This document shows, piece after piece, positions 969-38,939 of a stretch of DNA of 64,000 nt. Below the pieces are notes generated by a model. It saw nothing but the letters and a program-made list of their open reading frames with translations, was not told the DNA's origin and searched no databases. The translations under genes and the position numbers were made by a program. The stretch lies in the sequence record OX638288; one strand, 5' to 3'. Source of the DNA: Escherichia phage UP19. The first letter of the stretch is position 1; each line of letters starts with the position of its first letter.

Positions 969-2113
969 TTGAATTATATGATAACTTAATGGGCCTGGTT
1001 AAAAACTCGACTAAATCTAAGTTCTTCTTTAAAGACTTTCAGAGTGCGCTAGGAGTCAACTATCGCATCTTTAGTTATAACTATGCATCGTACAGTGATT
1101 GGTTGGAAGACGGCGCACTAGAGTGCCGAGGCATTATGTTTGAAATGGACGAGAACGGTCCGGTACGTATTGCTGCTCGTCCTATGCAAAAGTTCTTTAA
1201 CCTCGACGAAAACCCGTTGACCATTGGTTTGGATTTATCACAAGGAAATATCGACCTCGTAATGGCTAAGGAAGATGGTTCCTTGATTTCTACCTTCATG
1301 GACCGACAATATCTTTCTGTTAAATCTAAAGGCTCTATCCATTCATCAATGGTGCATGATTCTTTACGTTTCCTTCGACTCCCTGAAAACGAGGCCTTCG
1401 CTGCTCGTTTAGAAGAAATTACTAAAGCAGGCTATACATGTAACCTCGAGTATGTTTCGCCTACTAACCGTATTGTGCTGGCTTACCAAGAAACAAACCT
1501 TATCTTACTTAACGTTCGTAATAACGAAACGGGTGAATATATCCCTTACGCTGAACTGTTTAAAGATGGCGCTCTGCGTAAGCATTTGGTTAAAAGCTAT
1601 GAACTCTCTGAAGGTGATTTTGTTGACAATATCCGTAAACAAGAGGGTATTGAAGGCTTTATCTTTGTACTTAAAGATGGCACGTTCTTTAAACTCAAAA
1701 CCGCTTGGTATAGCGCACTGCATCATACCAAAGATTCCATTAATAATAACGAACGTTTATTTGAAGTTGTAGTGGCTGGTGGAACTGATGACCTCCGAGG
1801 TTTGTTCAGTACGGATTCGTTTGCTATTGAGAAAATCAATACATTTGAACGTATCCATTTAGACTACTTAGAACAGTCCTTGGCTTTGTTAGAAGCAGCA
1901 TATTCTCAGCTCAAGGGCCGCGACCGTAAGGACTACGCTGTTACCGGTCAGTTAATCCTCAAAGACTTCCCAGGGCTGTTCTCTATTCTTATGCAGGCGT
2001 ACGTAGGCGGTATTAATTATGATACGGTCGTAGACCAGATTAACTCTGTGTTCTTGAAAAATCATAAGGCCCAAATCCCTGAAAAATATTTGAAAGAAAT
2101 TGTTATAGAGTAG
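965..2113 (+). CDS. rnlA: RNA ligase 1 (gene 63)
   Basis: 382 aa; N-terminal ..YRIFSYNYASYSDW..ALECRGIMFE.. and KEDGSL nucleotidyl-transferase motif; ATGA overlap with denA stop. Confidence 0.9.
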   Translation: MIELYDNLMGLVKNSTKSKFFFKDFQSALGVNYRIFSYNYASYSDWLEDGALECRGIMFEMDENGPVRIAARPMQKFFNLDENPLTIGLDLSQGNIDLVMAKEDGSLISTFMDRQYLSVKSKGSIHSSMVHDSLRFLRLPENEAFAARLEEITKAGYTCNLEYVSPTNRIVLAYQETNLILLNVRNNETGEYIPYAELFKDGALRKHLVKSYELSEGDFVDNIRKQEGIEGFIFVLKDGTFFKLKTAWYSALHHTKDSINNNERLFEVVVAGGTDDLRGLFSTDSFAIEKINTFERIHLDYLEQSLALLEAAYSQLKGRDRKDYAVTGQLILKDFPGLFSILMQAYVGGINYDTVVDQINSVFLKNHKAQIPEKYLKEIVIE

Positions 2114-2144
2114 TTTACATCTCCTCATGATGTGTTAGTATAGA
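2113..2144 (+). promoter_or_regulatory. T4-type early promoter (GTTTAC -35 at 2113-2118, TAGTAT/TATAGA -10 at 2136-2144) inside a 9-bp inverted repeat (2120-2128 / 2156-2164) that includes the SD
   Basis: GTTTACA ... 17 nt ... TAGTAT; TCTCCTCAT / ATGAGGAGA inverted repeat; ATG of alc at 2172. Confidence 0.55.
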
Positions 2145-2171
2145 CCTACCAACTAATGAGGAGAAAACAAA

Positions 2172-2672
2172 ATGAATATGCAAATGATTACTAACGAAAT
2201 GGTTGTTAAAGCTTTTGGTGATTCTACTGACGGTATCCAAGTTTTTAAAGGTTCTCGTGCGGTAGGTTACCTAACCGATCTTCGTGTTACTTTAGCCAAA
2301 AATGCTAAAAAGAAAATCAAGCAAAAAGAATATTCTACCCGTTATGCAGAAGAAAAGCGTGAAGCCATGCCTGAAGCTGTTAACTCTATGGTTGAGTTTC
2401 TCCAAAACAACCTTTCTAAGTATGATGCTGAGGTATTCATTAATATCAGTCAGCCTAATGTTAAAATCGCAGGAATCACATTCTATTTGATTTGCGACCC
2501 ATTAAGTGACAAGTTTAATCGCCTTGGCATTTCCAGCCCTTACCATACTGCTGAAGAATTGTGTGTGATGTTTGAAACATACAAAATTCAGTGTGAAAAT
2601 CCTAAAACGGTTCTTATCAACTCCCTGTCACGTGATGACATCATCGAGATTATTACCAAATGTCTAAATTAA
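2172..2672 (+). CDS. alc: Alc-like host transcription termination protein (by position and size)
   Basis: 166 aa (T4 Alc is 167 aa); lies between rnlA and pseT.3 as in T4; no motif verification possible. Confidence 0.55.
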   Translation: MNMQMITNEMVVKAFGDSTDGIQVFKGSRAVGYLTDLRVTLAKNAKKKIKQKEYSTRYAEEKREAMPEAVNSMVEFLQNNLSKYDAEVFINISQPNVKIAGITFYLICDPLSDKFNRLGISSPYHTAEELCVMFETYKIQCENPKTVLINSLSRDDIIEIITKCLN

Positions 2673-3013
2673 GTATTTACCTTTTAGCTGGAGCCATTGT
2701 AGTAGGTGCTTACAGTCTTATTTCGTATCAATCAAGCCGTATTGATACCCTTACTGAAGAACTGAAAACAACCCAGCAAACAGCTAAACAGAACGCTGAA
2801 GCTGTTGATGACCTTCGTGGTCAATACTCTGATATTGAATTCCGTACTACTGAAATGAATGCCCGAATGGATAAAATTAAGGCAGAAAATGAAAAGCTCC
2901 GTAAAGATTCGAAGAAGGCGCACGTGGTGGCAAGTAAGCCAGGATTGGTCGAAAAACAAATCAACAAGTCCTTCGATTCCTTTACAGAAGACTTCAGGAG
3001 CATCACAGAATGA
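2660..3013 (+). CDS. pseT.3: i-spanin (inner-membrane spanin subunit)
   Basis: 117 aa; N-terminal TM helix (LSIYLLAGAIVVGAYSLI) followed by charged coiled-coil periplasmic domain; followed by lipoprotein partner. Confidence 0.7.
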   Translation: MSKLSIYLLAGAIVVGAYSLISYQSSRIDTLTEELKTTQQTAKQNAEAVDDLRGQYSDIEFRTTEMNARMDKIKAENEKLRKDSKKAHVVASKPGLVEKQINKSFDSFTEDFRSITE

Positions 3014-3300
3014 TTAAATTGGCTGCTGTAATGTTATCTATTGGCTTGTTAGTTGGATGTGCCCAGGACATCCCTGTAGCGCCTAAGCAACAACTCCACC
3101 CTTCATGGCCACAACCTATTGCCGAACATAATGTTAAATGGCAGGTTAAGGTAATCGACGGTAAGGCTTGGGTTGGTATGCCATTTGAAGACTCGCAAGA
3201 ACACAGAATTTGGTTGAACGACGTAAAAAGATATGTACAAGACCAGAAATCTATGTTATGTTATTATCGTTCCGGACTAAAAGAGGAGAAGTGCAAATGA
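3010..3300 (+). CDS. pseT.2: o-spanin (outer-membrane lipoprotein spanin subunit)
   Basis: 96 aa; signal peptide with lipobox LLVGC; start overlaps i-spanin stop (ATGA). Confidence 0.7.
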   Translation: MIKLAAVMLSIGLLVGCAQDIPVAPKQQLHPSWPQPIAEHNVKWQVKVIDGKAWVGMPFEDSQEHRIWLNDVKRYVQDQKSMLCYYRSGLKEEKCK

Positions 3301-3404
3301 TTGAAGCCTGTATCGATGGGTGGGACGTTTTTAAATTCGGTGCTGCATGTTTTTGCTTTGGTATCGTGTTCAGCCTGTGTATGAATGGTATTTTTGGGAA
3401 GTAG
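3297..3404 (+). CDS. hypothetical 35-aa hydrophobic peptide (MIEACIDGWDVFKFGAACFCFGIVFSLCMNGIFGK)
   Basis: ATG overlaps pseT.2 stop (ATGA coupling); single predicted TM segment; below the 60-aa ORF-track cutoff. Confidence 0.3.
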   Translation: MIEACIDGWDVFKFGAACFCFGIVFSLCMNGIFGK

Positions 3405-3438
3405 TTTACAAACTCTTGGGAGCAGAGTATAATGCTCC
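3404..3438 (+). promoter_or_regulatory. T4-type early promoter (GTTTAC 3404-3409, TATAAT 3428-3433) with GGAGCA/TGCTCC inverted repeat bracketing the -10
   Basis: GTTTACA ... 18 nt ... TATAAT; inverted repeat 3419-3424 / 3433-3438. Confidence 0.55.
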
Positions 3439-3467
3439 TACGGATTATAAAAATTGAGGAAATTATT

Positions 3468-3946
3468 ATGACATTACGTGATAACAGTTTTGTGGCTAAG
3501 CCTGAATACATTTCAAGTATTAAATCTCCTGTATTACAAAAGCTCCTTAAACTAGGGTCCTGTGCAAGCACTCCTATTGAAAAGAAGGCAACTTTCGATT
3601 TTGCTTGGGCTATTGTGGACGGTATTGATGTAGTAAGACAGGTAACTTTTTATGCTCCAGGGTCTATTGAGCCTTCACAGATTATTAATTTGAACGGAAG
3701 TAATTATATTACCATCCAACAGTGGTATCGTATGATGCGACCTGTTTGGGAATACCCTGAATTCATTGAAGAGTACAATGAAAAAGAACGTATTCGTGAG
3801 CTAGTAAAAAGTTTTGAATACGCAGCTAAACGCCACGGCCAGATGCAGCAAGCTGTGGCTTTAGGTGATGTTGATGAAAAATCAGCATATGAAAGTGGTA
3901 AACTTCTGAAAACCTGTCGCGAAGAACTTTATAAGGAGCTTGGTGT

Positions 3947-3950
<4 letters not shown>
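3468..3950 (+). CDS. hypothetical protein (pseT-region accessory ORF)
   Basis: 160-aa ORF with SD GAGG 8 nt upstream of ATG 3468; follows the early promoter cassette. Confidence 0.55.
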
Positions 3951-5168
<1,218 letters not shown>

Positions 5169-5169
<1 letters not shown>

Positions 5170-5366
5170 TGAATAATATCGAAAAGATTTTTCGTACAAT
5201 CGAAGAAATTGAAAAACGTAAATGCTTTTTCTTCGGCGTATGGCCTTTAACTGATGGACGTATTGGCCTGGATGTTATGGACTATAAAGATGAGGACAAG
5301 GTCGATGGTGGTATTTTTAAATCCGCTCCTGAACTCCTTGCCTTCTTGGAAGAACATTATGTATAA
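5169..5366 (+). CDS. hypothetical protein
   Basis: 65-aa ORF, start overlaps pseT stop. Confidence 0.45.
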
Positions 5367-5574
5367 CAAACACCATGAAGTTGAAGAAGAAGCTTATAAA
5401 GAGCTTCAGAAACTGGTAGGTCAGAATATGTCTCCTACCCTCATTAACTCACTAGCGGCTCTCCGTAACGATTTGAATGAACGTTATAAAGGCGAGTACT
5501 ATGTTGAGTTCGTTCCTCTGACTGAAGTCGTTGACCGGTTTATTGTTAACGTGAAGGTCCATACAGTACACTGA
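5359..5574 (+). CDS. hypothetical protein
   Basis: 71-aa ORF starting at internal ATG 5359 of track ORF 5254..5574. Confidence 0.4.
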   Translation: MYNKHHEVEEEAYKELQKLVGQNMSPTLINSLAALRNDLNERYKGEYYVEFVPLTEVVDRFIVNVKVHTVH

Positions 5575-5581
5575 GGTAATT

Positions 5582-5860
5582 ATGTTCCCTACTTATTCCG
5601 AAATTGTTAAAGTAGTTTTTAGTCAGATTGTATCTGATTACCTATACGAACCCGTCGACACCTCGATTGAACTAAAAGTTCACGGACGTTTGTCTGCTAT
5701 TCTGGAAATCATGTTCCCGGATGCAGTTGATGCGATCACTGTCCAACTCACGTCTGGCGCAGCATTTGCAATTGTTCCATTTAAAATTGATAACCACATT
5801 TTGGCTATTTCATGCAAAATGGACTTCCAGAAACAAACGGTAGTTGTCGAAGCAATTTAA
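5582..5860 (+). CDS. hypothetical protein
   Basis: 92-aa ORF. Confidence 0.45.
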   Translation: MFPTYSEIVKVVFSQIVSDYLYEPVDTSIELKVHGRLSAILEIMFPDAVDAITVQLTSGAAFAIVPFKIDNHILAISCKMDFQKQTVVVEAI

Positions 5861-5862
5861 GT

Positions 5863-5901
5863 GTTTACATCATGGTAGGACTGTGGTATAGTAGTCCTAC
5901 C
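5863..5901 (+). promoter_or_regulatory. T4-type early promoter (GTTTAC 5863-5868, TATAGT 5887-5892) with its -10 in the loop of a perfect 9-bp inverted repeat (GGTAGGACT 5874-5882 / AGTCCTACC 5893-5901)
   Basis: Seen directly; followed by leader ..AAACAAATGAGGAA..ATG (5923). Confidence 0.55.
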
Positions 5902-5922
5902 GAAACAAATGAGGAAATCGAA

Positions 5923-6474
5923 ATGGGTAAGTTCTTTGAAGAGCGTAAGTTTTATAAGTTCATTAGCGAATACACTAAAAACAAATTCACTAATAACGGT
6001 GCTTATGCCCTCAATACAGCTTTTGCCAAGTATGTAGGTATGAATCCGTTTGAAGTTGAAATTGATTACCATAATGGGTGTGAACGTGTAAGCCGAATTC
6101 GTGTATATGACGAGATGATGTTTGTCGACCCTAGCAAAATCACCGGTAATCCTGATGATGCAAATACTGTTCTTTTTAATTCAACAGGCCTTTTTGGCCA
6201 TGAATTCGAATACTTCATTGAAGTAGTACGTCCACTGGCCTCGGTGAGTATTCCTGAAAATGGACCTAAACCAGTAAAAGCCACTGCTGATTGGAAAGTG
6301 CTTATTGTTAAAAATGGTAAGATTGAAGTCCATTCTCGCCATAACACAAAGGAACAAGCCGACCGTCAAGCCGAAGAGCTTTTGACCAGTTCGTTCCAAC
6401 AAGTGTGTTATATTGTTAAGGGCGACGTTACCCAAGCTACCACTACCAAACAACTTAAGTTGGAGACCATCTAA
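5923..6474 (+). CDS. hypothetical protein
   Basis: 183-aa ORF from ATG 5923 with SD GAGGAA; follows early promoter cassette. Confidence 0.55.
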   Translation: MGKFFEERKFYKFISEYTKNKFTNNGAYALNTAFAKYVGMNPFEVEIDYHNGCERVSRIRVYDEMMFVDPSKITGNPDDANTVLFNSTGLFGHEFEYFIEVVRPLASVSIPENGPKPVKATADWKVLIVKNGKIEVHSRHNTKEQADRQAEELLTSSFQQVCYIVKGDVTQATTTKQLKLETI

Positions 6475-6707
6475 TGCTGAGCGAACAACCTATTACTGTA
6501 GAGCAGTTCCAAGTTAAAGTTAAAGAATTTGCTCAGGCTCTGATTAATAAGGTTTCTGTACGTTTTCCTGATGCAACTCTGCGAGTAATTCAGGAATCAC
6601 CGCGTGCAGTATTGGTTATCGTTAATCCTAAAGATGGCGACCAGATTACCCAGTTGAAACTCGGTTCTGATGGTCTGGTCGAAGCACAGCGAGTGTATGT
6701 AGAATGA
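6474..6707 (+). CDS. hypothetical protein
   Basis: 77-aa ORF, coupled to flanking genes. Confidence 0.45.
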   Translation: MLSEQPITVEQFQVKVKEFAQALINKVSVRFPDATLRVIQESPRAVLVIVNPKDGDQITQLKLGSDGLVEAQRVYVE

Positions 6708-7249
6708 AAGCAAGCACATATCTTCAGATTGCATATCTTATTTCTCAGGAATCAAAATGTTGTTCATGGAAAGTGGGCGCGGTTATTGAAAAGAATGGCC
6801 GCATTATTTCTACAGGGTATAATGGTTCGCCGTCTGGTGGTGTTAACTGTTGTGACCATGCAGTGGAACAGGACTGGACTCGTGTTGTGTATGACACGGC
6901 CCGAATGTCCCATAAATCGATTCTTCTTAAAGAACATCGTATGGCTCATGCTGCATGGTCATCCAAAAATGAAATCCATGCTGAACTGAATGCTATCCTG
7001 TTTGCAGCTCGTACAGGAAGTTCTATTGACGGTGCTACGATGTATGTGACACTGTCCCCATGTGCAGATTGTGCTAAGTCTATTGCGCAGTCCGGAATTA
7101 AAACGCTGGTTTATGCTGAACTCTATGACCGAAATCCTGAAGGATGGGATGATATCCTCCGTGAATCGGGCATCGAAGTTATCCAGTATAACCGTACCGG
7201 TCTCCGTTCTCTGAACTGGGAATCAATTCAAAACTATTGTGGTGAATAA
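6704..7249 (+). CDS. cd: dCMP deaminase
   Basis: 181 aa; zinc-binding cytidine/deoxycytidylate deaminase motifs HAELNAI and PCADC. Confidence 0.9.
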   Translation: MKASTYLQIAYLISQESKCCSWKVGAVIEKNGRIISTGYNGSPSGGVNCCDHAVEQDWTRVVYDTARMSHKSILLKEHRMAHAAWSSKNEIHAELNAILFAARTGSSIDGATMYVTLSPCADCAKSIAQSGIKTLVYAELYDRNPEGWDDILRESGIEVIQYNRTGLRSLNWESIQNYCGE

Positions 7250-7482
7250 TGAAATTTCGTCTAGTTAAGTTTTCAGGTCTGAATTCAAAAGGTGAAAGCT
7301 TAGTAGCCTATTCAGTAGAATACAAAAAGTACTTTTTCTCTCGATGGAAATCGTACTATAAATCTGAGTGGGTTTATGCCAACATGAAATACAAAACGGT
7401 GCCTATTCTTGATAATTGCCATAGCCTATTAAGAGCTCTAAAAGAGCGTAATGCAACCACTATTAAAACTATTCTGGAATAA
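7249..7482 (+). CDS. hypothetical protein (31.2-like position)
   Basis: 77-aa ORF between cd and gene 31. Confidence 0.45.
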   Translation: MKFRLVKFSGLNSKGESLVAYSVEYKKYFFSRWKSYYKSEWVYANMKYKTVPILDNCHSLLRALKERNATTIKTILE

Positions 7483-7484
7483 TT

Positions 7485-7784
7485 ATGATTTTAACTGAAC
7501 AAGAAACTATTCGACTCCGTGAAAAAGCCAAGACTATTCTGTCTGTAGGTACTCACGAAGTTCTGTTTGAAAAGGCGGATGGTAGTGTTCGTCGTATGAC
7601 TTGTACTCGCGACCTGGACCTCCTCCCGTATAAAGAAATTCAAGCCCCGGGCCCAGAAGCTAATAAAGAACCGGTTAATTATATTCGTGTATTTGATACC
7701 AAGGTTAATGACTGGCGCTCGTTCCGTTTCGATAAACTGATTTCTATTAATGGGCTTCAGACTGAAACTCTGCTTGTCCTGTAA
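7485..7784 (+). CDS. hypothetical protein (31.1-like position)
   Basis: 99-aa ORF between cd and gene 31. Confidence 0.45.
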   Translation: MILTEQETIRLREKAKTILSVGTHEVLFEKADGSVRRMTCTRDLDLLPYKEIQAPGPEANKEPVNYIRVFDTKVNDWRSFRFDKLISINGLQTETLLVL

Positions 7785-11798: not shown

Positions 11799-12062
11799 AT
11801 GTTTGTTGTTCATACAATTACTGACGGAACCCCTAAATCCCATGATTACGGAAACGTTAGACAATTCCTTCGATTGAACCCTGTATATTTCCAAGCCAAA
11901 GATGAAGATATCTTTATCCAATGTGTTCGGCGTGGATTTATGTATGTTACTGAATATGATATTAAAGATAAGCGTATTATTTCGTATCACAAAACTTTAA
12001 ATGAGCTTTTAGATGAAGTAGCTTATAATAGAAGTACACAAACTGTAAGGACGGTAAAATGA
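11799..12062 (+). CDS. hypothetical protein
   Basis: 87-aa ORF from ATG 11799 with SD GAGG. Confidence 0.45.
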   Translation: MFVVHTITDGTPKSHDYGNVRQFLRLNPVYFQAKDEDIFIQCVRRGFMYVTEYDIKDKRIISYHKTLNELLDEVAYNRSTQTVRTVK

Positions 12063-13582
12063 TTTTAGATATTTTGAACGAAATTGCGGCTATCGATTCT
12101 ACTAAAGCTAAAGAAGCTATTATTGCTCGTGAAAAGGATAACGAGCTTCTGAAACGTGTTTATCGTATGGCTTATACTCGTCGTCTGAACTACGGTATTA
12201 AAAAGTGGCCAGAACCTGGATTTACGTCTCAATCCTTTGGTATGATTACACTTGAAGACCTTCTTGATTTCGCTGAGTTCACACTAGCCACCCGTAAGAT
12301 TACAGGTAATGCGGCTATTGAAGAACTTGCCCAAATTATTGCAGATGCTAAGGGTCCAGACGCTGAGGTACTACGTCGTGTAATGATGCGCGACCTTGAA
12401 TGTGGCGCATCGATTTCTATTGCTAACAAGGTTTGGAAAGGTTTAATCCCTGAACAACCTCAAATGTTGGCTAGTTCTTATGACGAAGCTTTGATTAAGA
12501 AAAATATTAAATGGCCTGCGTTCGCCCAATTAAAAGCTGACGGTGCCCGTTGTTTTGCTGAAGTTCGTAACGATGGCGTAACATTCCTTACTCGTGGTGG
12601 TAATGAATACCAAGGGCTTAATCTTTTGGCTGCTGAATTAATGGCTATGACCGAAGAAGCTAGACAGCGCCATCCTAATGGTGTTATGATTGACGGCGAA
12701 TTAGTTTACCACACTCCTAAAGTAGAACCTAAAGCGTCTAATGATTTGTTTAGTATGTTTGATGAGGAACTTCCTGAATTAAGTAAAGCCAAGGAATTCC
12801 AAACTGTCGCCGATCGTTCTACTTCAAACGGGCTAGCTAACAAGGCTCTTCAAGGAACTATTACTCCAACCGAAGCCGCAGGTATGGTATTACAGGCGTG
12901 GGATTATGTCCCATTGGATGTCGTATATTCCGAAGGTAAAATTAAAGGCGATAAGTATGATGTACGCTTTGCAGCCTTAGAACTTATGGTTGCTCATAAT
13001 GTCGTATTGCATGGTACAACTCGTGTTGAAGCTATCGAAAACCAGTGGGTTAATAATCTTGACGAAGCTAAAGTCGTTTATAAGAAATATGTCGACCAAG
13101 GCCTGGAAGGTATTATCCTTAAGAACATGGACTCCTACTGGGAAAACCGCCGTTCTAAGAATCTTATCAAGTTCAAAGAAGTAATCGATATCGCTTTAGA
13201 AGTGGTAGGTTATTATGAACACTCTAAAGACCCAAACAAACTTGGTGGTGTCGAGCTAGTATCGCGGTGTCGTCGAATTACATCTGATTGTGGTTCAGGC
13301 TTTAAAGATACCACCCATAAGAAAGATAAATCAGGTAAAAAGGTATTGATTCCATTAGAAGACCGCCCTGATTTAGACCGTGAACTTCTTATGAAACAAG
13401 CTCGTGAAGGTAAGTTGATTGGACGTATTGCTGACTGTGAATGTAATGGTTGGGTTCATTCTAAAGGACGTACTGATACTGTAGGTATTTTCCTTCCAAT
13501 TATTAAAGGTTGGCGTTTCGATAAAACTGAAGCTGATACATTTGAAGATGTATTTAGTGATTGGTCTCAAACTGGACTATAA
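12059..13582 (+). CDS. 30: ATP-dependent DNA ligase (gene 30)
   Basis: 507 aa; N-terminus MILDILNEIAAIDSTKAKEAII..; ligase motif I ..LKADGAR..; matches T4 gp30. Confidence 0.95.
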   Translation: MILDILNEIAAIDSTKAKEAIIAREKDNELLKRVYRMAYTRRLNYGIKKWPEPGFTSQSFGMITLEDLLDFAEFTLATRKITGNAAIEELAQIIADAKGPDAEVLRRVMMRDLECGASISIANKVWKGLIPEQPQMLASSYDEALIKKNIKWPAFAQLKADGARCFAEVRNDGVTFLTRGGNEYQGLNLLAAELMAMTEEARQRHPNGVMIDGELVYHTPKVEPKASNDLFSMFDEELPELSKAKEFQTVADRSTSNGLANKALQGTITPTEAAGMVLQAWDYVPLDVVYSEGKIKGDKYDVRFAALELMVAHNVVLHGTTRVEAIENQWVNNLDEAKVVYKKYVDQGLEGIILKNMDSYWENRRSKNLIKFKEVIDIALEVVGYYEHSKDPNKLGGVELVSRCRRITSDCGSGFKDTTHKKDKSGKKVLIPLEDRPDLDRELLMKQAREGKLIGRIADCECNGWVHSKGRTDTVGIFLPIIKGWRFDKTEADTFEDVFSDWSQTGL

Positions 13583-13583
13583 T

Positions 13584-13754
13584 ATGAAAGCTTATTTAGA
13601 AACAATTGTTGTAACAAACACAAATAACACTGCGGCCTCTCAAATCATCCTAGAGTTTGAGGATGAAATAGCTTTTGCCGATTTTAAAGACGTGTTTGAC
13701 GGCTATGAAAAAGGCCCGACATTCGAAGTATATCGTACGTTGCTACCACTTTAA
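13584..13754 (+). CDS. hypothetical small protein (56 aa)
   Basis: ATG 13584 overlapping ligase stop; ends in terminator. Confidence 0.4.
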   Translation: MKAYLETIVVTNTNNTAASQIILEFEDEIAFADFKDVFDGYEKGPTFEVYRTLLPL

Positions 13755-13770
13755 GGCCTTCGGGCCTTTT
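13753..13770 (+). terminator. rho-independent terminator (AAGGCC-TTCG-GGCCTT + TTTT)
   Basis: 6-bp stem, TTCG loop, T-run. Confidence 0.7.
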
Positions 13771-13804
13771 ATGGCATAAATACGGTTATTAAAGAGGAAT
13801 TATT

Positions 13805-15892
13805 ATGACCGAACAATTGAATGAGGTGTTTGAGTCCGAAGGCACCCTGCCTACTGTAAACTTAAACCCAAAACTTAAAGTACCCCAGATTTGGAAGATT
13901 GGCGACGCCGAATCCCAATTAGTTGCTCGTATGGTATCTTATGCCTCTGAAGGCGATGCTATTAAACAGGTTAAATTAGGTGATAAATATGCCCACGTTA
14001 TTTTGATGAGTTTATCAGCTAAAGGTACTCCAGCCGAACTTAAAGGTGGATTAGGCCTTACTCCTATTGATGCTATTAATACCATTTTCGACGTAGTATT
14101 CGAACAAGTTAAAAAGCTTCGTATGGATGCTGTGATGTTCCGTTTTCCAACCAAGAAAATGAAAGGACAAGGACCTATTGTCCAACGGATTATCCAACGT
14201 TTGGTAGCACAGAAAACCGGTGGACGTTTTAAAGTAGTTCCAGCCATGTACCAATTTACCGGTAAACATACTTATATCCTAGTAGTGCGTAAACAAGCTG
14301 ATATCGAAGATATCAAAGGTATGCCTGGAATTAATGCCGAATTATATACTAAGGTAGATTCTGATGTTGGTGAAGTTTATATTTCTAAAAAAGAAGGCGC
14401 TCAGGTTACTAAAGAAACCGCTATTGCCGGCAGTATTGCTAAAGTTGAAGAACGTCGCACTGATAAAATGGTTATAACCAAGACTAAGATTTCTCGTCGT
14501 GCGATTGCGGCAAGCCAGTCATTAGAAGCAGACCGTAATGAAGGTGAATTATTTCAGAAATATGAACAAACTGCCAATGAGTTCAGTGCGCCTGCTACGG
14601 CGGAATTAATTCCACAAGCAGTCGAAGTTGAATTATCATTATCATCCGAAACAGCTAAGGATAAGCTGGCTACGGCTATTGATTTTAAAATTTATAATAC
14701 TATGGATGATTCATTTAAATTTGCGGATGAAGTTTCTTACGGTGATAAAATTAACTCTTCTTTAGAAAAATTTGTCAAAAAAATTAAAAATGAAAAAACC
14801 ACGTCAGTTAAAGCTTTAGCCGCCTTTGTTGAAGCTGCTAATGAAATCGCAGAATCTATTAAAAGTGATTGGTTTGAAGATTATAGAAAAGACAATTTCC
14901 ATTTGGAAAAAGAGATATTGAATGAAAACAGTGAAAGAGTATGGAAACAACGTAAGTCTTCATTCTTGTCTAAGATAATGTATACATACGCTATAGAATC
15001 AACTAGAGAAATTCTTAATATAACAACATCTCGAGACCCTAAACAATATACACTTGCAGAAAAACGAGCTATCAGAGAATACGCCTCTTCAGCTTATATT
15101 GATATTAACAATGTCCTTCTTGGCCGTTATAAACCGGGCTTTTATGAAGTTTTGGACGAAAGCGAAGTTAAACGTGCTATTGATGGAATGGATTCTGCCT
15201 TTAAAAATGGTGACCGTTTACCTGAAGGAATAATGGTTTATAGAGCACAATCTTTGCGCGCGCCTATCTACGAAGCATTAGTTAAAAATAAGGTATTCTA
15301 TTTTAGAAACTATGTTTCAACCTCATTGGCCCCAATCATTTTTGGTGGCTTTAAAGAGAATGCGGCTATTGGTCTTGCTTCCGATGATGTTCGAAAAGAA
15401 TTAAACATTGATAATAATGACGAAGGCGTTACCATCTCGGCTAGTCAAGTGCGTACACATATGTATGCGCCGGATCAAATCCGTGTTGATGTTGGCTGGG
15501 CTATTAGTGGCGCTCATAAGGTTAACGTGATTTATCCTGGCCAATTAAGCATGCATGCCAACGAAAAGGAAATAATTTTACCACGCGGGCTACTTGTAAA
15601 AATAGATAAAATCGTGGATGCATCAGCCAATACTGGTTCTGGGGCGGTGTCTAACAATAAATTTATTCAAGCTGAAGTTATGACATCAGATGAGCTTCAA
15701 GAATCTGTAGTGTATGATGGTGACGTACTAATGGAAACCGGCGAGTTGGTTGTGTATCAAGATGATTTCGATACTTCCGAAAGCCCTGTATCTTTTGATT
15801 CATTTGTTAAATCTACACGGTTTGATGTACTGCCTCTTTTGGCTTCATGCATAGACCTCTATGGCATCCCAGAAAAATTCATCCAAGGGTAA
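13805..15892 (+). CDS. alt: Alt-type ADP-ribosyltransferase, paralog 1 (virion-packaged, RNA-polymerase-modifying family)
   Basis: 695 aa; Alt-like N-terminus; C-terminal R-S-E ART signature (..YRAQS.. / ..VSTSL.. / ..EIILPRGL..). Confidence 0.9.
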   Translation: MTEQLNEVFESEGTLPTVNLNPKLKVPQIWKIGDAESQLVARMVSYASEGDAIKQVKLGDKYAHVILMSLSAKGTPAELKGGLGLTPIDAINTIFDVVFEQVKKLRMDAVMFRFPTKKMKGQGPIVQRIIQRLVAQKTGGRFKVVPAMYQFTGKHTYILVVRKQADIEDIKGMPGINAELYTKVDSDVGEVYISKKEGAQVTKETAIAGSIAKVEERRTDKMVITKTKISRRAIAASQSLEADRNEGELFQKYEQTANEFSAPATAELIPQAVEVELSLSSETAKDKLATAIDFKIYNTMDDSFKFADEVSYGDKINSSLEKFVKKIKNEKTTSVKALAAFVEAANEIAESIKSDWFEDYRKDNFHLEKEILNENSERVWKQRKSSFLSKIMYTYAIESTREILNITTSRDPKQYTLAEKRAIREYASSAYIDINNVLLGRYKPGFYEVLDESEVKRAIDGMDSAFKNGDRLPEGIMVYRAQSLRAPIYEALVKNKVFYFRNYVSTSLAPIIFGGFKENAAIGLASDDVRKELNIDNNDEGVTISASQVRTHMYAPDQIRVDVGWAISGAHKVNVIYPGQLSMHANEKEIILPRGLLVKIDKIVDASANTGSGAVSNNKFIQAEVMTSDELQESVVYDGDVLMETGELVVYQDDFDTSESPVSFDSFVKSTRFDVLPLLASCIDLYGIPEKFIQG

Positions 15893-15895
15893 ATA

Positions 15896-18019
15896 ATGGA
15901 AAATTTAAACGAGGTTTTTGATAGTGATTCCGCTAAAAACTATCCAGTAACAAATCTTAAACCAGGTTCCGGTATTCCACAGATTTTCTCTATCCAAGCA
16001 CCAGGTAATGATAATCTGGTTGCTCGTATGGTATCTTATGCGTCTCAAGGAGACGCTATTAAAATGGTTAAGCCTGGCGACAAATACGTTCATGTTATTT
16101 TGATGAGTTTGTCTAGCAAGGGTGCTCCGGCTGAACTCAAAGGTGGCCTTGGTTCTGACCCACTTGGTACACTGAATACTATTTTCGATACTGTATACGA
16201 ACAAGTAAACAAACTTAAAATGGATGCAGTTTTGTTCCGTTTCCCTACCAAGAAAATGAAAGGTAAGGGTCCTACCGTTCAGCGTGTATTAGCTCGTTTG
16301 GTGATGGCACGTACCGGTGGTAAGTTTAAAGTTGTCGATGATATGTTCCAGTTTAGTGGTAAACATACATACGTTCTTTTAGTACGTCGTGGTTCTAATA
16401 TCGAAGATATCAAGGGTATGCCTGAAATTGATGCCGATCTTTATACCAAGGTTGAGTCTAAAGTTGGCGAAGTTTATGTTTCTAAGAAAACAGGCCAGGC
16501 CGTAAGTAAGGTCGAAGCCGTAGCGGCATCTATCGCCCAGGTTGAAGAAAAACGTACCGATAAGGCTGTCATCTCTCGTACTAAGATTTCCCGTCGTATG
16601 GCTGCAGCAGCGCAGTATTCTACTTCCGAACCTGAAACTTTATCCCCTAAAGAATTGCAGGTTTATAATGAGTTTGAAGCTTCTGTACCTGTTCATTCGG
16701 CTGAAGGTCCTGAGAACGAAGGTATTGAACAGATTAGCCAGAACTTTAAAAAAGGTGCTATTACTAAAATGCGTCAGGCCTCTCAGTTTAAATCTAAGAG
16801 TGAGGACCTTGCCAACTTTAGATACACCATTGCTCTCACGCACGCTTTAATGACTGATAGTAAATTTAAACTAAATTATGCTAATAGAGATAAACAAGGG
16901 TTTGAAATTTACTCTAATAATATGGCATTTTTTAATACAGAAGTCGATAGACTTTTAAGTGGCCTTTCTCAAATCAATACTACCAATAGTCTGGATATTA
17001 TTAAGAGAATTGTTAATAACCTGAGCGCCCGTTTTCAGGGATCTCCTTCAGAGAAAGCATCCCGAATTGCTTTCGCTATGGAAGCCGTTTATAAACTGAT
17101 TAACGATTCTATTGGCGATGCGTATGCTTATTCAGGTGAGCTCATTAAACCTAAGGGCTTGACTAAAGACGAAAGCAATGCTATTATTGAATATTGCGCA
17201 GCTGAATATGCTCCTATGAACTTATTCCTTTTAGGTAAACCTGAATCCGAAAACAATACAACGGCTATTAAATTGATTAAGGATTTAGACTCAGCATTTA
17301 CTAAGGGTATTAAACTCCCTAAGGGTACTATTTTGTATCGTGGTCAGGATTTGCCATACAAAATTCTGCGTCATAATATCGATAACAAAACATTTTACTT
17401 TAAGAACTTTGTGTCAGCCTCATTAAAGCCTAACATCTTTGGTGAATTCGGTAAAAATTATATGGCCCTCGACAACCAAGCCGTTTTTGTTGGTGGTGAA
17501 GGTTCTTTATCCTCCGCTGATGAGTTGTTTAAATTGGCTAGTGGTAGTTCATCTGATGTGGGTGAAGTCGATGACGAAGAGGTAGAATGGGAAGAAGACG
17601 AGTTTGGTAATCCAATTGCACCTGAAGGCCCTGCAGACAGGATTGCTGAAATCGGTATGGTTATTCGAGGTGCTGAAGCAGTTAAAGTTATCGCTCCTGG
17701 CGACCTTACAGAATATGCTGAAGAAGCAGAAATTATCCTTCCGCGTGGATTATTGATGAAGGTTGATAAAGTAGCGGCTTTTGCTATGAATGATAGGGTA
17801 TCTCACAAATACCTTATGGAAGCTACAGTGACGTCTCCTTCAGAACTCAGTGAATCCGTTTACGATGGCGACCATCTGATGGAAACTGGCGAAGTTAAAT
17901 TGATGAATGGGTTTAAAGAATTCCTAGTTTCAGAATCTGTTTCAGAAAGTAATGAGGCTATGGAAATCCTTGCTGCATCTTTGGACATCTCTTCTTTATC
18001 AAATAAATTCAAAATGTAG
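15896..18019 (+). CDS. Alt-type ADP-ribosyltransferase, paralog 2
   Basis: 707 aa; N-terminal 150 aa closely similar to paralog 1, divergent middle, R-S-E signature retained (..YRGQD.. / ..VSASL.. / ..EIILPRGL..). Confidence 0.85.
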   Translation: MENLNEVFDSDSAKNYPVTNLKPGSGIPQIFSIQAPGNDNLVARMVSYASQGDAIKMVKPGDKYVHVILMSLSSKGAPAELKGGLGSDPLGTLNTIFDTVYEQVNKLKMDAVLFRFPTKKMKGKGPTVQRVLARLVMARTGGKFKVVDDMFQFSGKHTYVLLVRRGSNIEDIKGMPEIDADLYTKVESKVGEVYVSKKTGQAVSKVEAVAASIAQVEEKRTDKAVISRTKISRRMAAAAQYSTSEPETLSPKELQVYNEFEASVPVHSAEGPENEGIEQISQNFKKGAITKMRQASQFKSKSEDLANFRYTIALTHALMTDSKFKLNYANRDKQGFEIYSNNMAFFNTEVDRLLSGLSQINTTNSLDIIKRIVNNLSARFQGSPSEKASRIAFAMEAVYKLINDSIGDAYAYSGELIKPKGLTKDESNAIIEYCAAEYAPMNLFLLGKPESENNTTAIKLIKDLDSAFTKGIKLPKGTILYRGQDLPYKILRHNIDNKTFYFKNFVSASLKPNIFGEFGKNYMALDNQAVFVGGEGSLSSADELFKLASGSSSDVGEVDDEEVEWEEDEFGNPIAPEGPADRIAEIGMVIRGAEAVKVIAPGDLTEYAEEAEIILPRGLLMKVDKVAAFAMNDRVSHKYLMEATVTSPSELSESVYDGDHLMETGEVKLMNGFKEFLVSESVSESNEAMEILAASLDISSLSNKFKM

Positions 18020-18076: not shown

Positions 18077-18367
18077 ATGAAATCTGCATTCCGTTTTAAT
18101 GGTCAGGAACTGGTAGTTGAAAACGTTATCCCTGCTTCTGAAGAGTTCGACAGTGCAGTCGGTAATGAATTACGTCGAGTTTTCGGCGAAGACAAACAGT
18201 TCGACTTACGTCCGGTTGAAAATTTTTCACAACCTGAGCAAACCGAAAATATCTTTAATGGCGTAGTAACCGGTCAGCTTGAATCTGAAGCTCCTATTTC
18301 TATCACAGTCTTTGTTAAAAAGCAACCACTAATGACCGCAGCAGGTTTTATCTCGTTCCGTAAATAA
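18077..18367 (+). CDS. hypothetical protein
   Basis: 96-aa ORF with SD GAGGAG; between alt and gene 54. Confidence 0.5.
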   Translation: MKSAFRFNGQELVVENVIPASEEFDSAVGNELRRVFGEDKQFDLRPVENFSQPEQTENIFNGVVTGQLESEAPISITVFVKKQPLMTAAGFISFRK

Positions 18368-18374
18368 ACCCCTA

Positions 18375-18401
18375 AAGGAGAGCGTAAGCTCTCCTTTTTT
18401 T
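18375..18401. terminator. bidirectional rho-independent terminator (AAAGGAGAGC-GTAA-GCTCTCCTTT + T7) between converging transcripts
   Basis: 10-bp stem flanked by A-run and T-run; separates plus-strand early block from minus-strand gene 54. Confidence 0.8.
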
Positions 18402-37457: not shown

Positions 37458-38273
37458 TTAAGAAATTCGTGATGCTGCGATTGCAGACAGGTCCGCGAAG
37501 GACAGGGTAGGCTTAGCGCCTTTTTCTTCAACTGCTTCCGAAATATAATTCAGTGCTGCAGCATCGTCTTCAGTTTTATTTATAGCGGCTTCGGTGATTG
37601 GTTTTTCAACGTCAGTCTGGCCTTTAACCATTTCAACGATAGCGCCAATTTTTTTACCAAATGCATCGGAATAATCCATGCCTTCTACCAGAGAACTAAC
37701 TTTTTCTTTCTGAGATTCAGTCAGGTCTTTAGTTGCTTCCATAACAGCTTGTTCACGCTGTACGTAATTAATATATGCGTCACGCTTGCCAACTTCTTCG
37801 AACAAACGAGCGGTTTCGGCTTTCTGTTCAGCCAATTCTTCTTCCATTTCAGAAACAACGTCTACTGCTTCTTCTGGAACAACCACGTTATGTTCAACAA
37901 ACAGTTCTTTCATACCCATCAACATGGATTCGAACAGTTCGGCTTTAATACCTTTATCAACAGCCAGCTGGTTTTCAGCCATCCATTCTTTAGCGACGTG
38001 GTCAAGGAAACGACCAGCAGCTTCTTGGATTTTCTTATCAGCTTTTTCTTCAGCTTCTTCTTTATTTTTCTCAACTTCTTCTTCCGCTTTTTCAGCGATT
38101 TTAGCGATGTGAGATTCCGCCAGTTTAACGGCGTGTTGCTTGACGGTAGCTTCGAATACAGTGCCGAAAGTTTCTTTTGCTTCCGGAGAAATATTAACTG
38201 ATTCGAAAATACTGTCAAGAGCAACGGAAGCATCAATATTCTGTGCTTCGGCGATCAGTTGTTCTTTAAGCAT
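37458..38273 (-). CDS. 22: prohead core scaffold protein gp22
   Basis: 271 aa (T4 gp22 is 269 aa); highly charged, Glu/Lys/Ala-rich helical protein. Confidence 0.9.
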   Translation of the reverse strand: MLKEQLIAEAQNIDASVALDSIFESVNISPEAKETFGTVFEATVKQHAVKLAESHIAKIAEKAEEEVEKNKEEAEEKADKKIQEAAGRFLDHVAKEWMAENQLAVDKGIKAELFESMLMGMKELFVEHNVVVPEEAVDVVSEMEEELAEQKAETARLFEEVGKRDAYINYVQREQAVMEATKDLTESQKEKVSSLVEGMDYSDAFGKKIGAIVEMVKGQTDVEKPITEAAINKTEDDAAALNYISEAVEEKGAKPTLSFADLSAIAASRIS

Positions 38274-38300: not shown

Positions 38301-38308
38301 TATTTATA
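38301..38308 (-). promoter_or_regulatory. late promoter TATAAATA (minus strand) for gene 22, overlapping gene 21 stop
   Basis: Plus-strand TATTTATA 28 nt upstream of gene 22 ATG. Confidence 0.6.
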
Positions 38309-38939
38309 ACGCTTTTTTCATGGCCTCTGCGAGAGCCATAAAGGCGTCATCGGCACTGGTATCGGTATCTACCGTTTGTGATTCTGTAATTTGTTTAGGA
38401 GTTACATAAGCATCAGGAGCAGATGGACCCCATACTGCATCAACACCGACGGTTAATTTATAACCTTCGTTTACACGCTTATATCCTTTATTGGTTTCGG
38501 TTAAAGAACCTAGACCACGAGAACTAACACCAGGCACCCAACCGGCTCTAATATTAGCAGCTAGTTTATCACCAGGACCATGGTCGCCTTCAATAATACG
38601 AGCACGTCCATAAACGTCATTACCTTTCCACCACATATCTTCAATAATAATAGCGGCTTGCATAGGGTCGACGTTAGCGCGAGGCGGATGATTTAATTCT
38701 CCTAAAGCTTGTTTAGTAGCAACCTGTTCTGCCATATAATCAGCAACAGCTTTTTCCAAAATAGGTTTTGGATAAAGGCGTTTATTACGGTTAACCACTT
38801 CGGCTTGCATGAATATGCCTTCTATATAAAGGCCCGGGGCAAGTCCAGAATCTTTTCCATCATGAGATTCCAACATCGGAACCCCATCGATAATTTCACC
38901 TGGTTGTCCCCAATGTTCGATGAGCAATTCAGGTTTCAT
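38304..38939 (-). CDS. 21: prohead core protease gp21
   Basis: 211 aa (T4 gp21 is 212 aa); gene order. Confidence 0.9.
   Translation of the reverse strand: MKPELLIEHWGQPGEIIDGVPMLESHDGKDSGLAPGLYIEGIFMQAEVVNRNKRLYPKPILEKAVADYMAEQVATKQALGELNHPPRANVDPMQAAIIIEDMWWKGNDVYGRARIIEGDHGPGDKLAANIRAGWVPGVSSRGLGSLTETNKGYKRVNEGYKLTVGVDAVWGPSAPDAYVTPKQITESQTVDTDTSADDAFMALAEAMKKAL

Follow-up and report, generated by a model that had tools for sequence, protein, structure and literature searches.

The alta/altb pair of Escherichia phage UP19

Escherichia phage UP19 (OX638288) carries two adjacent genes for full-length homologs of Alt, the head-packaged NAD+:arginine ADP-ribosyltransferase of phage T4. The window analyzed here is a stretch of 64,000 nt from this phage, and all positions given for UP19 are coordinates in it. 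We assign a probability of roughly three in four to the reading that this locus is the alta/altb pair of a JS98-like Dhakavirus, and that it encodes two ancient T4 Alt paralogs that are packaged, processed and injected and that act on different targets. The genes lie head to tail on the + strand, separated by a gap of 3 nt and repeating with a period of 2097 nt. The first, alta (copy A, 13805..15892, +), encodes an Alt-family ADP-ribosyltransferase of 695 aa and 77.6 kDa, and the second, altb (copy B, 15896..18019, +), an Alt homolog of 707 aa and 77.7 kDa. An earlier note on this DNA had described them as two adjacent full-length Alt genes of 695 and 707 aa; its coordinates prove exact, and the two proteins align over their full length with 41% identity (BLASTP, E 6e-151). 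Both match Pfam family PF03496 (ADP-ribosyltransferase exoenzyme), with E-values of 1.3e-28 for A and 3.3e-18 for B, and phrog_802, 'Alt-like RNA polymerase ADP-ribosyltransferase', over residues 1-694 of A (E 1e-256) and 1-707 of B (E 6e-251). T4 Alt aligns end to end with each of them, and the pair occupies the genome slot of T4 alt, between gene 30/alt.1 and alt.-3/gene 54.

A 4.9-kb region containing the pair matches Escherichia phages EcWhh-1, MN04 and JS98, all members of Dhakavirus (Tevenvirinae), at 97.5-97.8% identity. For JS98 the figures are 97.5% DNA identity over the 4.9 kb and protein identities of 99.7% (alta) and 98.4% (altb), with the same neighbours: gene 30, alt.1, alt.-3 and gene 54. 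The differences are a few percent of sequence divergence and the start of altb, which is annotated one codon longer in JS98 (ATG ATG, where the window reads ATA ATG). The prior annotation of the pair in JS98 was taken from GenBank record EF469154, which calls the two genes alta and altb. Tandem alt paralogs are also present in the literature: Nolan et al. 2006 (PMC1524935) reported a full-length alt duplication in phage 44RR, as well as the paralogy of T4 alt.-1 and alt.-2 to alt, and a 2026 paper describes two Alt paralogs, 43% identical, in a Tequatrovirus and interprets them just as the earlier note interpreted the UP19 genes (PMC13600099). With this annotation and these publications in place, the pair is no discovery and by itself adds nothing new. 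What can be added is a segment-wise view, in which an ancient pair under strong constraint combines a lineage-bound N-terminal part with a mobile enzyme cassette.

Age of the duplication

Twenty-one Alt proteins were aligned, those of the window together with those of ten related phages, and divided into an N-terminal (N) domain, a middle domain, an ADP-ribosyltransferase (ART) domain and a C-terminal tail. Trees were built from the 21 sequences by neighbour joining, with the middle-domain bootstrap on p-distances. Between A and B, identity is 16% in the middle domain, 39% in the ART domain and 38% in the C-terminal tail; other segment-wise estimates go down to 36% for the ART domain and to 12% for the middle domain, which is essentially unalignable. 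The corresponding values for A against copy 1 of T2 are 33, 61 and 54%, and those for B against copy 2 of T2 are 46, 59 and 61%. Clades defined by cassette type, the cassette being the middle and ART domains together, cross genera with 100% bootstrap in both the ART and the middle-domain trees, and the C-terminal endings sort by type in both genera (…KF[IV]QG for A-type, …KFKM for B-type). Synonymous sites of A and B are near saturation in all segments, with a proportion of synonymous differences (pS) of 0.64-0.69 and an estimated synonymous divergence (dS) of 1.4-1.9. The orthology of the middle, ART and C-terminal parts across genera, together with the saturated dS, implies that the A/B split is older than the split between Dhakavirus and Tequatrovirus. 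Judged by these comparisons, the duplication is ancient and predates the separation of the two genera.

The N domain (~230-240 aa) behaves differently from the rest. It clusters by phage genus, with the genus clades at 100% bootstrap. The N domains of A and B are 66-67% identical and those of T2 copies 1 and 2 are 68% identical, whereas cross-genus pairs reach only 42-47% (47% for copy A against T2 copy 1). The statement in the earlier note that the N-terminal region is conserved while the central and distal parts differ is borne out by the 66-67% of the N domain as against the 16 and 39% of the middle and ART domains. Recent gene conversion was considered as a source of the N-domain similarity and was ruled out by a pS of 0.65 and a dS of 1.49 in this domain, barely under the cross-genus values.

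The earlier note implied a different history, namely a recent tandem duplication in this lineage, with distal parts that diverged fast and N-terminal homology that still drives unequal crossing-over. The head-to-tail copies with their 3-nt gap and 2097-nt period, an exact 23-mer common to both copies, and the presence of 1, 2 or 3 copies in relatives would all suit such a history. We nevertheless judge it very improbable, as the synonymous sites are near saturation even in the N domain, each copy is closer to the gene of the other genus that has the same position and the same ending, and the DNA of the copies is only ~66-74% identical, with one exact run of more than 20 nt. The 23-mer, GTTGCTCGTATGGTATCTTATGC, does occur at exactly two places in the window, 13922 and 16019, and in 0 of 100 shuffles. 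To speak of 'long identical DNA runs', as the earlier note did, nonetheless overstates the matter, since the exact runs in register (offset 2097) measure 23, 17, 17, 16, 11 and 11 nt and the N-terminal DNA is only ~66-74% identical. The proposal that the direct repeats serve as recombination substrates likewise holds in part: copy number and content do vary among relatives, which have 1, 2 or 3 genes, but within this genome the A/B repeats are poor for unequal crossing-over because they are ~70% identical and share a single 23-nt exact run. We infer that they are too diverged to be good substrates.

Domain architecture and catalytic residues

Each protein is built of five parts: an N propeptide, the N domain, a helical middle domain, the ART domain and an acidic C propeptide. 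The N-terminal propeptides have 6-7 residues and end in L-N-E, and the C-terminal propeptides, of 54-62 aa, are acidic and begin directly after an L-x-E motif. In copy A, the N propeptide MTEQLNE (13805..13825, +) has a predicted gp21 cut after LNE-7, aligned with ITE-6 of T4 Alt. It is followed by the genus-specific N-terminal domain (aa 8-238, 13826..14518, +), by the effector cassette (14519..15703, +), which comprises the helical middle (aa 239-410) and the ART domain (aa 411-633), and by a C propeptide of 62 aa and net charge -9 (15704..15889, +), which starts SVVYDGDVLMETGE after a predicted gp21 cut at LQE-633. Copy B has the N propeptide MENLNE (15896-15913, +; predicted gp21 cut after LNE-6), an N-terminal domain (aa 7-240, 15914..16615, +), an effector cassette of type 'B' (16616..17854, +) with the helical middle at aa 241-418 and the ART domain at aa 419-653, and a C propeptide of 54 aa (17855..18016, +) that starts SVYDGDHLMETGE after a predicted gp21 cut at LSE-653 and ends ...NKFKM, like T2 copy 2.

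All residues of the R-S-E signature that the earlier note had seen in both copies could be located, and the codons were verified by translation. In copy A they are R480 (15242-15244, +), S505 of S-T-S (15317-15319), and E587 (15563-15565) and E589 (15569-15571) of E587-K-E589; in copy B they are R482 (17339-17341, +), S507 of S507-A-S509 (17414-17422) and E610-A-E612 (17723-17731). In an alignment of 55 homologs, no variation is seen at the Ser or at either Glu, and conservation of the Arg is at least 90%. An inactivating substitution in the catalytic residues, which would have counted against activity, is present in neither copy, and at the sequence level both genes appear functional. Both proteins thus carry the features of the R-S-E clade, that is, the catalytic Arg, the Ser of S-T-S and E/Q-x-E, on a C3/VIP2-like ART fold (PF03496), with B departing at the middle residue of S-T-S. 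Their 'YR' and 'E-x-E-[IV]-[IL]-LPR' motifs align to those of C3, C3larvin and CPILE-a, and the catalytic residues of C3-type toxins are matched in the alignment by the Arg and the second Glu. In searches against chains of the Protein Data Bank (PDB), full-length A, queried by sequence, had no match at E up to 0.01, and queries with the ART domain returned only weak C3-type and iota-like toxin matches, with no phage Alt among them. Relative to C3/VIP2/iota-type toxins, Alt has an extra 400-aa N-terminal part, head-packaging propeptides and a 50-70-aa insertion between S-x-S and E-x-E, and it is delivered by the phage capsid, whereas the toxins are delivered by secretion.

The acidic insertion that the earlier note pointed out in copy 2 is indeed there: the stretch EVDDEEVEWEEDEFG occupies B residues 557-571 (nt 17564-17608, +), in the long loop from S-x-S to E-x-E. 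This loop has 103 aa and a net charge of -17 in B, as against 82 aa and -3 in A, and in B it is modelled as disordered around the acidic insert (aa 526-578, predicted local distance difference test (pLDDT) below 50). S-A-S and the acidic insert are shared without exception by the Dhakavirus B copies examined, whereas T2 copy 2 has S-T-S and no insert.

Pfam searches with the N and middle domains alone gave nothing meaningful, and the N-terminal domain had no Pfam match at E up to 10, GNAT families included. The AlphaFold model of the copy B N domain alone is confident (pLDDT 86) and shows an alpha/beta fold that may be weakly GNAT-like. A conserved L-K-G-G-L-G (B 81-86), placed by eye, stands where the acetyl-CoA motif (Q/R-x-x-G-x-G/A) would be expected, without the Q/R. 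A second Pfam family, PF26846, is listed on all Alt homologs in the protein database and presumably covers the Alt N-terminal or middle region.

Packaging, processing, activity and targets

T4 Alt is a component of the prohead core, present in ~40 copies, and is subsequently injected with the DNA (PMC9026906, PMC5694885). It is cut by gp21 after ITE-6 and LTE-619, which removes 63 C-terminal residues (PMC5694885). Both UP19 proteins have gp21-type L-x-E motifs at both ends, LNE-7 and LQE-633 in A and LNE-6 and LSE-653 in B, aligned with ITE-6 and LTE-619 of T4, and directly after each C-terminal gp21 site stands the near-invariant sequence S-V-(V)-Y-D-G-D-x-L-M-E-T-G-E. The same cut rule, when applied to T4 Alt, gives its published mature mass of 68.2 kDa. 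For A it predicts a mature protein of residues 8-633, with a mass of 69.9 kDa and an isoelectric point (pI) of 7.75, and for B one of residues 7-653, with a mass of 71.1 kDa and a pI of 5.96. The expected processor of both is the prohead protease, a gp21 homolog encoded in the window at 38304..38939 on the - strand (phrog_207, E 7e-76), and its gene adjoins that of the scaffold protein gp22 (37458-38273; phrog_237, E 4.5e-89). In a Mosigvirus, an A-type Alt that shares 73% identity with A has been detected in virions by mass spectrometry (PMC6563131), as has an Alt homolog in virions of Morganella phage MP1 (PMC5384007).

Ratios of nonsynonymous to synonymous divergence (dN/dS) against close relatives are 0.04-0.07 for each gene and 0.03-0.12 for the individual segments, four per gene. 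Such low values imply strong purifying selection on both genes, propeptides included. The lowest of the four segments of copy B is its ART domain (0.03). This value bears on the idea that only A is a working enzyme and that B is a weakened or non-catalytic head-internal protein, such as a decoy, a DNA-mimic-like acidic protein or a structural passenger. The idea draws on S-A-S in place of the S-T-S of at least 90% of homologs, on the loop charge of -17 with its disordered acidic insert, and on a Pfam match that is weaker than that of A and split into two stretches (E 3e-18). We find it unlikely, however, given that R482, S507, E610 and E612 are all there, the Ser and both Glu being invariant across the 55 homologs, that the ART domain is the most constrained part of B, that every Dhakavirus B copy examined has the insert along with S-A-S, and that the T2 ortholog has a normal S-T-S.

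The gp21 motifs at both termini, the low dN/dS and ART domains that are 36-39% identical with different loops make it plausible that A and B are two active, packaged and injected enzymes with different targets, as the earlier note supposed. The diverged middle domains and ART loops are what suggests the difference in targets. By analogy with T4 Alt, alta and altb would be transcribed together, both proteins would be built into the prohead core, and gp21 would trim them at both ends. The trimmed A and B would then be injected along with the DNA, and each would ADP-ribosylate its own set of host proteins, with target specificity set by the middle domain and the ART loop. Alternatively, A and B could be redundant, both modifying the RNA polymerase alpha subunit, and the pair could be kept for dosage or robustness. 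They belong to one family, databases name both 'RNA polymerase ADP-ribosylase', and T4 manages with one copy, alt being non-essential there (PMC9026906). Yet a redundant pair would hardly be expected to have ART domains only 36-39% identical and middle domains at 12-16%, nor to persist as two separate lineages across genera, with the B-type cassette in 461 records. Alt variants are also not interchangeable in an anti-defence assay, in which T4 Alt counters Mokosh type I defence and Bas37 Alt cannot replace T4 Alt (bioRxiv 10.1101/2025.11.20.689424). Redundancy is accordingly an improbable explanation of the pair.

Several points weigh against the reading of A and B as ancient paralogs that are both packaged and act on different targets. 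Packaging, cleavage, injection and activity of the UP19 proteins are predictions by analogy, and the papers searched gave no proteomic evidence that a B-type protein is present in virions. The proposed difference in targets rests on sequence divergence and on the one preprint, which concerns other Alt variants. B has S-A-S where at least 90% of the 55 homologs have S-T-S, and this, together with its 23-aa acidic and probably disordered insert, could alter its activity. The genus specificity of the N domain could stem from gene conversion long ago, from duplications that arose independently or from co-evolution with head proteins. Lastly, the exact T4 late-promoter box TATAAATA was not found at the locus upstream of either copy, where there is only CATAAATA.

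Mosaic genes and cassette exchange

The alt genes of these phages are mosaic. The alta of JS10, for instance, is 98% identical to A in the N domain and 98% in the C-terminal tail, yet only 35% in the middle domain and 60% in the ART domain; its ART domain instead matches that of T2 copy 1 at 94% protein and 89% DNA identity (dS 0.48). In the profile of DNA identity between the window and JS10 and Bp7, values of at least 90% drop to 33-66% between ~14500 and 15660 and then recover, and the block of middle and ART domains is replaced in alta of JS10, Bp7 and WG01. JS10 and IME08 have the same genes in the same place as UP19 but a different alta cassette, while altb of the window and of JS10 are 98% identical. 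Copy 2 of Bp7 is a hybrid of a B-like N domain (92%) and an ART domain of T4-Alt type (79%). The cassette of A, type 'A1', is common to KIT01 copy 1 and to the Mosigvirus Alt (ART 81%), and the cassette of B is orthologous to that of T2 copy 2. Comparison of the window with KIT01 gives a dS of 0.03-0.06 in the A cassette and of 0.5 in the A N domain, a contrast which implies that the A cassette arrived separately from its flanks. In KIT01, which has three copies, the counterpart of window 15713-16624 (the end of A and the start of B) occurs twice, flanking the extra cassette. A similar pattern is seen between T2 copy 1 (3504-5597) and T4 Alt (1504-3552), whose N domains are 99% and C-terminal tails 94% identical, as against 31% for the middle and 64% for the ART domains, evidently the outcome of a cassette swap between two classic laboratory phages. 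Literature searches for Alt cassette shuffling returned no description of it, which is not proof of absence.

The breakpoints among relatives are consistent with phages exchanging DNA in the conserved flanks, the N domain on one side and the C-terminal part on the other. The N domain evolves with the phage lineage, while the block of middle and ART domains behaves as a cassette that is swapped between phages by recombination in these flanks. More tentatively, and at somewhat less than even odds for the proposal taken as a whole, the alt locus of T-even phages may be an array of one to three slots for exchangeable injected effectors, with cassette types each matched to a different host target or defence system and circulating among Dhakavirus, Mosigvirus and Tequatrovirus, and with the N domain and C propeptide doubling as packaging handles and homologous recombination flanks. 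In such an array, the N domain itself is possibly a GNAT-like pseudo-enzyme or a second enzyme. The arrangement would resemble T4 internal proteins and polymorphic toxin systems, which by analogy also pair a conserved delivery part with a variable payload exchanged by recombination. Unlike these modular effectors, alt comes without an immunity gene, and its conserved part is a folded domain of 230 aa plus the C-terminal propeptide, whereas T4 internal proteins use a targeting peptide of 10 aa. If the proposal is true, the cassette set of a phage helps to decide which defended hosts get infected. Alt cassette content may then be a practical marker of the defended E. coli strains that a therapeutic T-even phage can infect, and the conserved flanks would lend themselves naturally to designs that load other payloads into T4-type heads.

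Distribution and relation to known Alt loci

A tblastn search with copy A against 50,697 phage records found matches at 1,834 places in 1,221 records, and a full-length B-type cassette is present in 461 phage records. The number of alt genes is one in Mosigviruses, two in T2, pSs-1, JS10 and Bp7, and three in KIT01 and WG01. Three copies are found in some members of Dhakavirus. From these counts and copy numbers it follows that multi-copy alt loci are common. The extra first alt gene of WG01 (1617-3512, 631 aa) stands apart, with a distinct cassette whose ART domain is 32-38% identical to those of A and B, an unrelated C-terminal end (…EKLANLFK) and no match to the S-x-S pattern; it may represent a fourth type of effector, or else a copy in decay.

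T2 and many other Tequatroviruses, such as pSs-1 and 6phi13, have two full-length alt genes in the same order as UP19. The first of the T2-type pair ends …KFVQG and the second …KFKM, and over their middle, ART and C-terminal parts they are orthologous by position to A and B. They differ from the UP19 pair in that their N domains are more alike (68%) than either is to Dhakavirus N domains (42-47%), and in the S-T-S and missing acidic insert of the second. T4 Alt shares with A and B the five-part architecture, the R-S-ExE residues, the genome position and gp21 motifs at aligned positions. Its identity is 43% with A and 33% with B, and its cassette is of a third type, 'A3', found also in pSs-1 copy 1 and Bp7 copy 2. 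T4 has, moreover, lost its second alt copy. In the T4 locus (OL964735), alt.-1 (61 aa) and alt.-2 (67 aa), at 3556-3941, match residues 1-56 and 62-116 of the second Alt gene of T2 (copy 2, 5601-7658) with 96% identity. This match implies that alt.-1 and alt.-2 are the broken 5' end of a B-type alt and not independent genes.

Expression signals and neighbouring genes

Upstream of the pair lie the DNA ligase gene (gene 30, 12059-13582) and, between it and alta, a gene for a 56-aa alt.1 homolog (13584..13754, +; phrog_1976, E 6e-24), whose syntenic open reading frame in JS98 is alt.1. A hairpin, GGCC-TTCG-GGCC with a T-run, can be read from the sequence at 13755-13770 (+). At most 5 nt beyond it, just upstream of alta, is CATAAATA (13775-13782, +), which differs at one base from the T4 late-promoter box TATAAATA and has the alta ATG 22 nt downstream, and a Shine-Dalgarno sequence, AAAGAGGAA (13791-13799, +), precedes the gene. 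A conserved terminator upstream of alt has been described in T4-like phages (Nolan 2006, PMC1524935). The hairpin and CATAAATA would insulate alta and altb from ligase transcription and give them late, head-gene-like expression. A scan for sigma-70 promoters found no more sites than in shuffles. The start of altb, preceded by AAGGG, is 3 nt past the alta stop, so altb is probably co-transcribed with alta and translationally coupled to it.

Downstream, the gene for a 96-aa alt.-3 homolog (18077..18367, +; phrog_1739, E 9e-43), named after the JS98 annotation, is the final gene of the + strand block. It is followed by a strong terminator-like hairpin with a 10-bp stem and a T-run (18374..18397, +), beyond which lies the convergent gene 54. 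The hairpin, CATAAATA and ribosome-binding site before alta, the 3-nt spacing and the terminator-like hairpin after alt.-3 therefore make it likely that alta, altb and alt.-3 are transcribed together. No tRNA turned up in a scan of the window. Extensions at the C-terminus of Alt.-3 allow T4 to escape CmdTAC defence by blocking the degradation of CmdA (PMC11618068).

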